This document shows, piece by piece, positions 44,901 to 50,900 of a DNA stretch of 64,000 nt; positions within the stretch are counted from its first letter, which is position 1, and every line of letters starts with the position of its first letter. The DNA is from Escherichia coli O157:H7. GTDB lineage: Bacteria > Pseudomonadota > Gammaproteobacteria > Enterobacterales > Enterobacteriaceae. Location of the stretch: the NCBI RefSeq assembly GCF_013167455.1, contig NZ_CP038328.1; one strand, 5' to 3'. Made by a program: the position numbers.

Positions 44901-47900
44901 TGCGCGTGAGATGCGCAGAAATGACAAAGGCATCATTACGGTGCCTGAGTGTTAAACAACTGTTTTGACTTTATTCACTTACATTTTGCCAATTTGCAGG
45001 ATTTCGTGTTATCCGTCCATGTAAGCAAACCTCATTTTTCAGCAAAATATTCTTCTTATCTGTCGATTCCCCAGCACGCCAGCGCGCTCTCCTGGTCACG
45101 ACGGGATATCTGACCGTAACAGTTGTTTGAACGAATACGGCAGTCTCTGCCACCGTCCTTAATCCACCAGCGAATCGCTTCGCAGGCACCTTTTCGATCA
45201 CCTGCATTAATTCGTCTGTAAAACGTCGACGGGAAACACTTACCGGGACCAATGTTGTACGGACAGAATGACGCGATCCCCGCTTTCTGGGGTTCGGTCA
45301 GCGGCACTTTGATGTTTTTCTCCACCCATGCCAGCGCCTTATCACGCTCAATGGCGTTAACCTGGTCGCATTTTTCCTTCGACAACTTCATGCCCGGGAC
45401 GACAGGTTTACCATCCACCAGGATGGCACCGCGGCAGATGGTCCAGATACCCGTACCATCACGGTATGCTGTGGTGTGGTTACCTTCCTTTTCATCCAGA
45501 AACTGGTCGAGGATTTCAGGCGCAGACGCCCCTGCACCAATCAGCGCCAGAACGGCAGCCGACAGGCCGTATCTGATTTTTGCGTTCATGGATATTTATC
45601 AGGATTTATCGATTTCAAATCCCTGGATATGTTAAGTCTTCAGGCCAGCGGTGGAGTCTTCAGAGAACCCGTAATTATTCCCGGTAGTTTTCCTCTGTAG
45701 GTTATCAACACATCCTGCGCCTCTAAAATGATGGGCCGCTTTTCCGGCAACGGACCATCCCCTTCACATAACCCGGCAGCAACATCCATGAAAAACTGCT
45801 TCGCCTGCTTTTTCGCCTCAGCTTCGTAAAACTCCAGCGTGGCACCTTCAGTACGGTCAAGACTAATCGCCACATCTGGCAACAACAGTGACGGATACCC
45901 ACCAATTTCCAGTGCCACAGTAACAGTAATCTTATCCGGGTAATTATTTATCCCTTTAACAACCAGTTCGTATTTTTTCTTCATCGCTTTACTCTCCCCG
46001 CGCCGCCTTACGCTTATCTTCTTTAATCTTGAAATAAAGGTTTGTCAGATACGTCAGCAGGCCAAACAGCAGACTCCCCAGCACACCTATCGCCACCCAC
46101 TGGGACGGAGAGACTTTGTCCAGCAGCTGCAGTAACCAGTATCCCGTCCCCACCGCTGACGTGGTGTATGACACACCCGTTGTGATTTTTTCCATCTGAT
46201 GTATGTCTCCGTCACCGCCGACAGAAAATGAAAGTAAAGGAAAACAAAAAAGCCGCCAGTGTCACCCACTGACGGCCAACGCCGGGAGCCGTGATTATGG
46301 CATTCAGGCTCTGCTAAAAATGCCAGATAACATTCCGGCCTCCCCCGATTCAGGTTATAAATGACACAATATCTTGACAACATCCGTCACTGTCTGTCAG
46401 AAAATGTACTGCCATATAGAAGCAACATGTGAAGTACATCTATCCTTTTGAGCCAGCACCTCTCCACCGAAAGTCAGTGCTGGCTGTTTTTTTCCTTAAT
46501 AAAGCATCTGTAACTGAAACAATCCGCATATTGATAATATATTGACAGGCATCATTGCTGTCTGTGAAAAATAAGTCTCTACAAACATATAAGGCCTTTT
46601 AGCCAGCGTCTTCTTTTTCAGGTCAGTCGCTGGCTTTTTTTATTATGCTGCCGGTGCATTTATCTCCAGCATCAGACTTTCTATCTCAACGCCATACGCT
46701 GCATTTTTTGTAACATCCGTCAGCGTCAGCGCATTCAGTCCCAGTGTCAGACTGTCTTTTATAACCTGGAATGCCGGGCCAGCCACTCCATTCAGTTTCG
46801 GAGTAACCGTGGCACTGCCGGCGGTGAACACCAGCTCCAGCGTCTGCCAGTCGTTACCGTAATCGCCGAACTCCCCCAGCTTCGTGTTTCCGGCTTTCCT
46901 GTGATGCATCAGATTCACTCTGCCGTCAGTGGTCTGAGTGAAGTACGACATCAGGAACGGATTACCGGTACCCGTCATCGCCACACCATCAGGAACGGGA
47001 GCATCCGTATACAGATAAATCCCCAGCCCGAACTGATTGTTGGTCAGCGCGCCTGACAGGCGGAACTTACAGGTCAGTCTGCCGCCCTGTGTCAGCAGGG
47101 TAATTGCGTCATCCACCGGATGCGTCAGGGACCAGGTTTTATTGCTCTGCTTGGTGATCTTAAATACACCATCTGACAACTGAATTCCGCCATCCTTAAT
47201 GCTCCAGCCCTGCGCAGCAGCCTCTCCGGCTGCCGGCAGCAGGGAGATTGTGCGAACGGACGTATCTGCAGACGGACCCGATGGCGTGTTGCCGCCGGGC
47301 GAGGGTTTGATTTCCGGTGCCTTACCACTGATGAAGGCTGAGGTGCGCCCGGCTGCGTTCAGAATAGCGGTTGCCAGACGATCCGGAATAATGCTCCTGC
47401 GCGCCCATGAACTGAAATGTGTCGGGCGGTTTGATGATACCTGGTTTCCATTCGTTCTCGATGCCGCACCGTAATATCCTGATGCCGGAATATCCGGATC
47501 TTCTGCCGGCGCGTTAGTGGCGGTATTGACGCCGTTACCGTCTGTCATGAAGGGCACAAAATAAACGCCCTCACTCTCCCTGTTTTTATACCCGCCGTAC
47601 ACGGTGTCGTACTGGGTAGCGTATGTATTTTTCCAGTAATACGTCGTGTCACCACAAATCCACGGCACATCTGCAGCACTGCCACCATGGCACTGCGCGT
47701 TAAACACGGAGAGGTCAGCACGAAACTGTGTCAGCATGGCTGTAAACAGCGCAGGTTGCTGTGCGTGGGTGGCGGCGCTCATGTCAAACTCTCCCTGCAT
47801 CCAGCACACCGCCAGCAACACATTTTTCGGGTTCTTCTGTAATGCAGCTTTAGTGCGCGCAATCAGGTCCTGATATAACGGTTTACCCACACCCCAGCGT

Positions 47901-50900
47901 GCCGAATCCTGGCTGGCCCCCGTGTCCGCACTGAATGTCCCCTCCGCGCCCTGGGTGAATGCAGAACCACCACGACAGCATGGTACCAGCAGGATCCCCG
48001 CGTTATTCGGGATATACGGGAGCAGTTTTTTGGCAATATGTAAGCCCTGGCCGACACAGCCGTACTGCCCTTTGCTCAGGTCTGCCTTCGGATGATTCAG
48101 CGTACTCATATCCTGCACATCATGCAGGCAGTGGTCGGCCGGAATAATATCGTTATATCTGCATGCAGCCCCACCCGGCGTAACTGTACTGCGGCGCGCC
48201 AGCTGTTTAATGCGCGGATCCGGAGCATCGTATGAATCCGGCAGCGGAAGCCCTTCACCGTAAGCCATGGCATTGGACTGCCCGGCCAGTACGATGACGT
48301 AGTACCAATCCGGCTCAGTTGCACCACTGACCACCACATCACCTTCTGCTGTAATCGCCTGCATCAGGGTATAAGGGGTTATGGCCACCGGACTACCAAA
48401 CGGCTGCCAGCCCTCTTTCAGTTTGTGTGTCAGCTTTTCCGCAAGGTCTGACGGCGACGCCGCCCTGACAACATCATAATGTTTAAATGTCATTATTCCT
48501 CCCGGCCGGGATAGTGTATTAAATCAGATATGGAGTGGGCTGTAGTCCGGAAGCCTGAATGACACACGGGGACTACAGCCCAAGAAATGAAAAAAGGCCA
48601 CGCAGTTGCGCAGCCTGATAAACCCTGGTTAAAATCCACACGATAACAACACAACAATATCAGTATCTCATGCTATTGCCCGAACCCATTCGGGCATTTT
48701 TTTACCCATAAAAAATGCCCCTCCGGAGAGGGGCATGTTTGCATGCACATTCTTTTTCTTGCATGGTGCCGGGTGCCTCCCGGTGAATTCAGTATCAGCA
48801 CCTGAATCCGCGATTATCCCATATACCTGGTTGCTGATCGCCCCTCCGCACAGGGGGATTCACCATGCAGAAGTGTTTTTAATAAACAGCAAACAAAAAA
48901 ATCAAGCATTATGCAGGCTGTTTCTTTTTATCACCGGCCACAGCAATACCACAATGCCGCAGACCAGCACCCCATCCGCCAGCACCGACATGATTCTGCT
49001 GGTGAAATCCACCATCACCACCAGAAACAGCAGGAGTGCAGCCACAGCCAGGCGCAGTTTTACCGTCACAGGTGATTCTCCAGACGAAGACCCAGAACAC
49101 CGGCAATCTCTTCCAGCACCTTGCGCTCTTCCGGCTCAATTTCGCCGTCTGCCTCCGCAATGGCCACCGCCACATCCAGCACATCTTCCGCTTCACGCGT
49201 ATCGTGTTTCACATCCTCAATCTCGCGTAACGCGGCACGACGACCAATTTTAAAATTGGTATCCAGCTGACCGATAATGGTTGCGCTAATCGCATTAATT
49301 TCCGAGGTAAACGCAGACAACGCAGGCTGATTACGTAAGACCTGTTCGATCTTCGCTTTCTCGGATGCCTCGCATTCACCATCTGCATAGGCCACCAGGT
49401 ATGCAGCGTTAATCACCGCCTGTGCCAGATCGCGTTTCTCAAACTTTTTAATTTCCGCTGCCGCTCTGCGGGTTTTCTTTTTGAAGATTCCAAACATCGT
49501 GACGTTCCTTTGGGTGGGTGAGCCAACGCCCGGGAGCGATCTGCCCACAGAGAAAGTCACACTGACCACTCCGTAAGCTCACCCCCGAAAGGCTCTGTGG
49601 TTGATATGCGCCGGGCGTGGCGCAGATACAAAAAAGGCCCGCCGAAGCGAGCCTGGAAAATAAGTGTGGCGCGTTGTAGTGGAGTCTAACCACTGACCGA
49701 TTGCTTAGAAGGCAATTGCTCTGTCCGACTGAGCTAACAACGCATGATGCTGATAATGGACCGCCATCGGGGACTTGAACCCCGCGCAGCCAGCTTCGAA
49801 GGCTGGCGCTCTGTCCCGATGAGCTAATAGCGGTATGTAATATGGTGGCCCTTGCTGGATTTGAACCAGCGACCTGGCGATTATGAGTCGCTCGCTCTCA
49901 CCACTGAGCTAAAGGGCCGAGCCAAAAAATAATAATCAGATGAAAATCAATAATCAAGCCCTTGCCTGGATACATATCTGTCTGGCGGGAAGCCATAATA
50001 GCGGTGAAATACAGAAATAAAGTAGGACCTGCTTGAATAACCGCATTTTTCTGCTATAGCCTGTCCATATCCATGCCGGGAACATAACATATTTACAGCA
50101 ACACGCATCCGCTCTTCCAGCAACAAGCGACTGAACATGCCCCCTTCATTTTTCAGTTTTGTCTTTAACAAACTCTCACTCATATGCAACTGTAGAGCAA
50201 TCGCACCAAGCGTCCAGCTTGCTGATATATCTGTCTGAATTATCGCCCTGACTTTGGCACTTATGCTGGATAAACATCCACTTAAAAACAATGACATCCG
50301 TTCATCTGTTTCAAACAGAGACAGGCAGGCCATCATAAGAAACATATCCGTGGCCTCTCCGGAAAATCCCTGGCTGGTAATTAAAGCCGCAGCCAACGCA
50401 GGATTGTTGGGTTCCAGCAACAGGTAAAGCGGAATGTCAGTCAGACGAGTCCTCGTCAGCTTATGCTGACTTTCCAGATATTGACTTACGACGGATTCGC
50501 TGATATCGACAATTTTAACTTTGCCATAATGCATAAGGAAAAGCTCCCTGATGCATTTGGTGGCCAGAACAACTGAGCCTGGCTTAAGTGACAACGTATC
50601 CTTTTCAAGAAAAATATTAATTGGGGAGCAAACCATGATAACTGAACAGACAACAGCCATTATAATTTTACTTTCATTAGCAATTGGTTAGCTCAATTAT
50701 AGCCCCAAAAGGTAAATTATCATCAACACATAAGCAAAGGACTGACAGGTGTCGCCCCCCCACCAGCCGCCCATTCACCACAAATAAAAAGCCTTCAGGA
50801 CTGAAGGCGTCTGTAACAACCGCACTGATAGTCTGCCAGACCCGCCATAACAAGCTGGGTCAGTATTAACTGGCAGCGTTCGCGTGAAAGGTAAGTATTC

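Follow-up and report, generated by a model that had tools for sequence, protein, structure and literature searches.

What stands between the late tRNA genes and the lysis genes of a lambdoid prophage, the place where phages encoding Shiga toxin (Stx) carry their toxin genes, if no toxin gene is present? The question is raised by a 64,000-nucleotide (nt) stretch of DNA from Escherichia coli O157:H7 (NCBI RefSeq assembly GCF_013167455.1, contig NZ_CP038328.1), called the window below, in which a sequence-only reading had placed a NanS-p-like esterase, a TerB-like protein and a small membrane open reading frame (ORF) in a slot equivalent to that of stx. The setting is the late region of a lambdoid prophage, read on the minus strand, with the gene of the antiterminator Q (51792-52172) upstream. 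Here a 732-bp cassette of two genes, tciA and tciB, exactly replaces the ~1.37-kb stx2AB cassette of Stx2 phages. As a whole, the region very probably represents the standard moron slot in the late operon of a lambdoid prophage without toxin genes, of the kind found in enterohaemorrhagic or enteropathogenic (EHEC/EPEC-type) E. coli. The cassette, its two genes and the features bounding it upstream are located as follows.

48887-49618, minus strand: swapped cargo cassette tciA-tciB, delimited by blastn breakpoints against VT2-Sakai and Stx2_95 and by the annotation of these phages
49066-49497, minus strand: tciA, TerB family, 143 aa, soluble product (Pfam TerB, PHROG 632, RefSeq)
48902-49069, minus strand: tciB, DUF3927, 55 aa, GTG start (Pfam, PHROG 1470, RefSeq ‘DUF3927 family protein’)
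49635-49654, minus strand: terminator-like hairpin with T-run, directly after the last tRNA (8 pairs, 6 of them GC, TTTTTG tail)
49667-49743, minus strand: tRNA-Arg, anticodon TCT (ARAGORN, Rfam)
49757-49833, minus strand: tRNA-Arg, anticodon TCG (ARAGORN, Rfam)
49843-49918, minus strand: tRNA with CAT anticodon, called Met by ARAGORN and tRNA-Ile (Ile2, ileX/ileZ type) by RefSeq (Rfam tRNA, 72.5 bits)

The order tRNA-Arg, stx2A, stx2B, spacer, nanS-p is found in both VT2-Sakai and Stx2_95. According to blastn, Stx2-phage similarity to the window ends at 48886, inside the 5' end of the small RNA (sRNA) gene STnc100, and resumes at 49619, just past the terminator that follows the tRNAs, with 90-91% identity over 49619-49749; the exact exchange of tciAB for stx2AB is read from these two breakpoints. 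The hairpin at 49635-49654, which forms the upstream edge of the cargo cassette, lies within the Stx2-phage homology and hence belongs to the common backbone. A Stx1a phage is 96% identical from the lysis genes up to 48882 and has stx1AB in the same place, followed by STnc100 and an AgvB-family RNA. The equivalence with the stx slot is thereby confirmed for tciAB, and does not extend to the esterase gene nanS-p. Stx1a and Stx2a phages (VT2-Sakai, Stx1_14040) have in common with the window the tRNA-Arg and terminator of the upstream flank and, downstream, STnc100, an anti-sRNA of the AgvB/AsxR family, a structured leader and nanS-p; since these are present in Stx phages too, outside the breakpoints, nanS-p, its leader and the sRNA pair are backbone common to Stx phages and not slot cargo. 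Between the flanks those phages have stxAB, whereas tciA-tciB stands here, with no toxin gene anywhere in the window: tblastn of Stx1A/B and Stx2A/B against the whole window gave a best E of 0.16 and no stx-like ORF, in agreement with the earlier statement that stxA/stxB-like ORFs are absent.

Along the minus strand, the gene order is tRNAs (Ile2-CAT, Arg, Arg), tciA, tciB, STnc100, leader and nanS-p, with AgvB convergent on the plus strand. Tree et al. 2014 described the layout ‘moron coding sequence (CDS), convergent sRNAs, conserved ORF’ in Sakai prophages (PMC4104026). The Sakai Sp10/Sp17 moron slot downstream of PR' (AgvB1/AgvB2) has the same moron CDS, convergent sRNA pair and conserved ORF (nanS-p), AgvB lies between moron CDS and nanS-p in the window as in that layout, and nothing of substance differs. 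RefSeq, Pfam, PHROGs or Rfam already cover every part, publication of the layout dates from 2014, and nothing contradicts the identity of the parts. In E. coli UTAK-1, RefSeq annotates a locus of 99.9% identity as SASA family carbohydrate esterase, DUF3927 family protein, tellurite resistance TerB family protein, two tRNA-Arg and tRNA-Ile; annotated loci of O145, O157 and bovine E. coli are 99-99.9% identical, and at least 80% of the stretch 46400-50000 is present in 644 of 5426 complete E. coli genomes. The annotation of phage JLK-2012 uses the names tciA/tciB for the gene pair, after phage P1. The CAT tRNA, which opens the group of three phage tRNAs at the upstream boundary of the slot, is 86% identical to trnI of P1. 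A promoter-like site at 49929-49957 might serve the tRNAs only.

The TerB-like identity of the first cassette gene was upheld by hidden Markov model (HMM) search. TciA matches Pfam TerB (PF05099) at 2.2e-12 and PHROG 632 at 1.7e-69, and its profile matches the ter-operon TerB of Klebsiella (PDB 2JXU) at 1.1e-15 over residues 13-137, so that the TerB domain takes up almost the full length of the protein. The N-terminus is basic (MFGIFKKKTRR) and two ADGE...E motifs are present. Similarity to the TerB-like domain of DjlA is weak, and NCBIfam gave only sub-threshold DjlA/YmfL matches for TciA. The gene differs from both of these systems in its company: none of the ter operon genes (terZABCDEF) flank tciA, and its partner is a separate 55-aa membrane protein, not TerC or a fused transmembrane segment. 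RefSeq names the 432-nt gene's product ‘tellurite resistance TerB family protein’; going by sequence, the words ‘tellurite resistance’ reflect homology only.

The longest mechanical ORF of the gene starts at GTG 49569, the start also given in the sequence-only reading. This start was rejected. In homologues called with too early a start, the added N-terminal residues bear no relation to one another. ATG 49497 is almost certainly the true start, because RefSeq gives 432 nt, an AGGA lies 8 nt upstream, the extensions are unconserved and all TciA homologues, including distant phage ones (down to 28% identity), begin M-[FL]-G-x-[FL]-KKK.

The start of tciB overlaps the stop of tciA by 4 nt (GTGA). 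Its product matches Pfam DUF3927 (PF13064) at 4.8e-17 and PHROG 1470 ‘TciB-like’ at 4e-30, which bears out the small hydrophobic GTG-initiated ORF proposed earlier as a DUF3927 gene, its coordinates (48905-49067) having been correct minus the stop codon. Two hydrophobic helices lie either side of a loop with a conserved D..DG, a conserved WPxxK stands near the C-terminus, and the grand average of hydropathy (GRAVY) is 1.43. Searches of NCBIfam, PHROG and Pfam matched no holin family model to TciB, and NCBIfam gave no curated family for it.

A short GTG-initiated gene in a region with many equally long mechanical ORFs could be a chance feature, a spurious ORF in a GC-rich tail followed by random inverted repeats in the spacer. 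This reading is already refuted, and we assign it practically no probability: the DUF3927 match stands at 4.8e-17, the D..DG..WPxxK pattern is kept at protein level in unrelated phages, the two sRNAs of the spacer score two to three times the Rfam gathering thresholds, and the leader hairpin described below is kept in diverged leaders.

Whether the two genes belong together was judged from two sets of loci. Among 80 IMG/VR loci found with the TciA profile, a set of nearly identical E. coli prophage loci only, a DUF3927 ORF lies immediately downstream of the TerB gene in 79, and the remaining locus is cut by the contig end. Among 14 GenBank records of diverse phages, DUF3927 follows the TerB gene in eight (P1, JLK-2012, Klebsiella phage 5, Erwinia jumbo phage ChrisDB, N4-like SP-058 and Pollock, Pantoea LIET2 and Pseudomonas nickie), with gaps of -8 to +3 nt, mostly overlapping or abutting stop and start, and with TciA identity down to 28%; in Klebsiella phage 5 the DUF3927 ORF is present but unannotated. 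The suggested co-conservation of TerB and the small membrane ORF was thus found in close loci and in unrelated phages alike. In other E. coli prophages, which lack nanS-p, an overlapping tciA-tciB pair stands immediately in front of the holin gene. The coupling of TerB with its two-helix partner is kept across widely differing phages (lambdoid, P1-like, N4-like, jumbo), often beside tRNA genes.

Two observations weigh against a fixed partnership. In Pseudomonas phages AF and Ebordelon and in a Paracoccus phage, the gene after TerB encodes a small hydrophobic protein of another kind, and the TerB homologues of two Vibrio phages have no DUF3927 partner, one of them having TerC upstream instead. 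The TerB-DUF3927 partnership is strong yet not universal. The protein that follows TerB in AF (locus L084, 1932-2153) and Ebordelon (locus L087, 1943-2146) is a 67-73-aa non-DUF3927 protein, unannotated in AF, that has a single hydrophobic helix at its N-terminus and the conserved motif C..YGWQTERET.Y..FVGCMV; it is a possible analogous partner of TerB. Apparent TerB-DUF3927 fusions in two E. coli database proteins (P0004 and P0066) were discarded as Rosetta-stone evidence: their junctions show frameshifts at the GTGA overlap, and they are sequencing errors or pseudogenes, not natural fusions.

In six otherwise unrelated contexts (P1, ChrisDB, nickie, JLK-2012, Klebsiella phage 5 and this window), tciA-tciB lies within ~0.1-0.8 kb of tRNA genes, and in P1 the three tRNA genes of the region flank the pair. 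No tRNA is near the TerB gene in the N4-like phages, LIET2 or the Vibrio and Paracoccus phages. The association could reflect a co-mobile module or a common moron hotspot. P1 resembles the window in having a TerB gene followed by an overlapping DUF3927 gene beside tRNAs that include tRNA-Ile2(CAT). It differs in the sequence of TciA (~42% identity to this one), in a third small gene, tciC, without counterpart here, and in the position of the tci genes in the early, C1-controlled ban operon region, not in a late operon as here.

What the pair does can be put forward only as a model. The two genes would be translationally coupled, and TciB, as a two-helix membrane hairpin, may anchor or partner the soluble TerB-domain protein TciA at the inner membrane, the two forming a split version of membrane-anchored TerB-domain proteins such as DjlA. 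They may act on envelope or ion stress, or in the exclusion of colicins and phages. The anchoring model, which is drawn by analogy, is held with low confidence; that tciA-tciB is a distinct two-component membrane module, a new kind of envelope/ion-stress or exclusion device rather than a ‘tellurite resistance’ gene, is a tentative suggestion. Literature searches on the function of TciA, TciB or DUF3927 found none.

Several findings count against this proposal. The P1 genes tciA, tciB and tciC were non-essential in a CRISPRi screen (PMC10695390). Promoter prediction placed no promoter directly upstream of tciA, and the PADLOC defence models gave only noise-level matches for the three proteins and three neighbours.

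The position of the pair just upstream of the lysis cassette in lambdoid prophages, in some abutting the holin gene, together with the small two-helix build of TciB, which resembles that of holins and antiholins, would also suit a lysis-timing accessory, in which TciB would adjust the action of the holin or pinholin encoded ~2.7 kb downstream, with TerB as the sensor of membrane state. We consider this unlikely. TciB matches no holin family model, and in other phages annotated lysis genes are not its neighbours: the P1 pair is found among tRNAs in the C1-controlled ban operon region, that of N4-like phages among dUTPase and ATPase genes, and that of the Erwinia jumbo phage at the genome end among tRNAs.

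The same phages bear on a further reading, in which TciB is the small membrane toxin of a toxin-antitoxin or abortive-infection module and TciA its protein regulator. A strongly hydrophobic protein of ~55 aa (GRAVY 1.4), translational coupling with the gene upstream and a historical tci label that includes ‘inhibition of cell division’ speak for such a module; strictly lytic phages (N4-like, jumbo) carry the pair, where an addiction module makes little sense, a larger, upstream gene is not typical of an antitoxin, and no PADLOC defence model matched. We therefore rate this reading, too, as improbable. Where the pair sits in P1, N4-like and jumbo phages, and the absence of any defence-model match, accord badly with both the lysis-timing and the small-toxin model; the anchoring model is kept, with low confidence, as the working proposal.

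The expression of the cassette can be judged from the terminators around it. Three minus-strand intrinsic terminators lie between the tRNAs and nanS-p, so that tciAB, nanS-p and the lysis genes would need Q-mediated read-through. On induction, as expected from lambdoid biology, Q-modified RNA polymerase would read through these terminators and express tciAB, nanS-p and the lysis genes.

The backbone downstream of the cassette begins with the spacer between tciB and nanS-p, which covers 408 nt (48494-48901) and not 48494-48740 as first delimited. Its features and the esterase gene that follows are listed here.

48704-48897, minus strand: sRNA STnc100 (RF02076), Rfam 142.7 bits against a gathering score of 47, model positions 1-206
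48641-48702, plus strand: anti-sRNA AgvB (RF02702), Rfam 96.5 bits against a gathering score of 56, convergent with STnc100
48595-48616, minus strand: terminator-like hairpin with U-run in the nanS-p leader, the most conserved leader element across 31 unique variants
48536-48548 and 48570-48582, minus strand: arms of an inverted repeat forming a 13-bp perfect hairpin (100% complementary, 21-nt loop)
48500-48511, minus strand: small hairpin CCCG/CGGG, its 3' arm continuing into the nanS-p ribosome-binding site GGGAGG (paired in 11-12 of 12 sequences)
46643-48493, minus strand: nanS-p, predicted 616-aa sialate O-acetylesterase (Pfam, PDB profiles, PHROG 143)

STnc100 begins 4 nt after the tciB stop and has an intrinsic terminator stem at 48715-48736; the family also follows stx1B in the Stx1a phage, at 190.7 bits. 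AgvB is identical to the Rfam consensus at 62 of 62 positions, including the CACAACA mimic of the GcvB target, and has its own terminator (48677-48696 and a T-run). The Sakai copies of AgvB are made in the lysogen, bind Hfq, antagonise the core sRNA GcvB via the CACAACA mimic, relieve dppA repression and raise DppA translation, and AgvB aids EHEC competition in bovine terminal rectal mucus (PMC4104026). In the window, the sRNAs would likewise be made in the lysogen, and AgvB would act as a sponge for GcvB, relieving targets such as dppA, as shown elsewhere (PMC4104026).

The 3' ends of AgvB (48692-48702) and STnc100 (48710-48720) have 11 nt of perfect complementarity (GGGCATTTTTT / AAAAAATGCCC); sequence is common to both terminators, and 3'-end pairing between the two RNAs is possible in principle. 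AgvB is found in only ~25 of the 80 tciAB loci from IMG/VR. In ~30 of the 80 the spacer is shorter, the alignment to STnc100 covers no more than its 5' 70%, and the nanS-p leader is of a different kind, so that sRNA content is itself modular behind one and the same cassette.

The 12-bp-stem inverted repeat that had been described in the spacer is present, with a stem of 13 bp; the ‘further hairpins’ reported beside it are mostly the two convergent sRNA terminators, to which the terminator-like hairpin at 48595-48616 and the small hairpin by the ribosome-binding site are added. In folding, the 151-nt nanS-p leader surpasses 198 of 200 shuffled sequences (z = -2.9), the 13-bp hairpin is part of its minimum-free-energy structure, and 12 diverged leaders, taken from Stx1, Stx2 and non-Stx prophages, retain all three hairpins. 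Against a conserved structure stands the covariation in the 13-bp hairpin, which is thin: three pairs are changed on both sides, in one sequence each. From these alignments, the conservation of the leader is real and its covariation thin. As read from the sequence, the hairpin at 48595-48616 overlaps, on the other strand, the likely -35 region of the AgvB promoter.

For nanS-p, the coordinates of the sequence-only reading (46643-48493) were exact, and the product is of the SASA/NanS-p type. Pfam domains are DUF1737 (residues 3-50, 2.1e-15), SASA (66-262, 5e-12) and DUF6645 (467-577, 9.4e-18); NCBIfam gave no curated family for the esterase. The catalytic domain (residues 59-379) matches NanS (PDB 3PT5) at 1.4e-121, and the C-terminal lectin-like domain (421-613) matches that of NanS-p (PDB 6YP6) at 1.1e-29. 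The catalytic residues, the absence of which would have spoken against an esterase, are kept: Ser73 (block I GQSN, codon 48275-48277) and His359 (block IV RPTH, codon 47417-47419) align with the NanS positions in 3PT5. They presumably correspond to the Ser19/His301 dyad that is reported to be catalytic in NanS (Rangarajan et al. 2011). NanS (YjhS) and the NanS-p of 933W and phi24B are alike in the SASA catalytic domain, the GQSN serine and block IV histidine, DUF1737 and the C-terminal domain; they differ in block IV, which is RPTH here and RSSH/RASH there, and the C-terminal domain has diverged from the crystallised one. The RPTH variant of block IV is already recorded for Stx2a prophage 86 (PMC10462455).

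The protein would remove O-acetyl groups from sialic acids via its Ser/His pair, as shown for homologues; for NanS-p homologues, esterase activity and a growth benefit on Neu5,9Ac2 have been described (PMC10462455; references in PMC8319020). Its DUF1737 end may bind the capsid, as reported for the phi24B NanS-p homologue gp84, a capsid-decorating protein attached via DUF1737 (bioRxiv 10.64898/2026.04.10.717836).

Downstream of nanS-p, ORF calls and RefSeq give the lysis genes, with spanin genes also present.

45989-46195, minus strand: holin gene
45056-45589, minus strand: endolysin gene

The 447-nt spacer between nanS-p and the holin gene (46196-46642, minus strand) has a strong intrinsic terminator (stem 46251-46277, 11 pairs and a T-run) and is 97.5% identical to phage YYZ-2008 (NC_011356), the representative ‘esterase-PasA-holin’ phage of a 2026 preprint. 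It probably encodes the candidate Hfq-dependent sRNA PasA or PasC; Rfam has no PasA/PasC model for this candidate.

Upstream of the tRNAs, an AraC-family regulator gene (49947-50660, minus strand) lies between them and Q. Its nearest matches are YdeO (4e-31) and GadX (1.2e-24), both under curated cut-offs, and by sequence it resembles the prophage-encoded Psr/PatE-type regulators of acid resistance and of the LEE in EHEC. Between Q and the AraC-like gene are a 148-aa ORF (51265-51711, plus strand, against the direction of late transcription), with an N-terminus resembling the signal peptide of a lipoprotein, and a 65-aa ORF (50795-50992, minus strand). Neither matched an NCBIfam family, and PADLOC gave a noise-level match only, for the 65-aa ORF. 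In the best RefSeq match, additional sequence is inserted between Q and the AraC-like gene, and the late region is accordingly variable here too. Elsewhere, Rfam placed a C4 antisense RNA (57501-57588, 81.4 bits) beside an isrK-family RNA (57613-57689, 62.2 bits), both on the minus strand further up the prophage; close to the beginning of the window it placed the core sRNA SraL (268-408, plus strand).

The window carries a toxin-less relative of the Stx phages, with the tciAB cassette precisely in the toxin slot, and the value of this result is mainly as correct annotation. The widespread TerB and DUF3927 pair is named by homology alone. Outside the slot, the prophage has a full copy of AgvB, an RNA shown to help EHEC in bovine rectal mucus (PMC4104026), and its NanS-p would be, by analogy with its homologues, an esterase of the type linked to growth on mucin-derived sialic acid.

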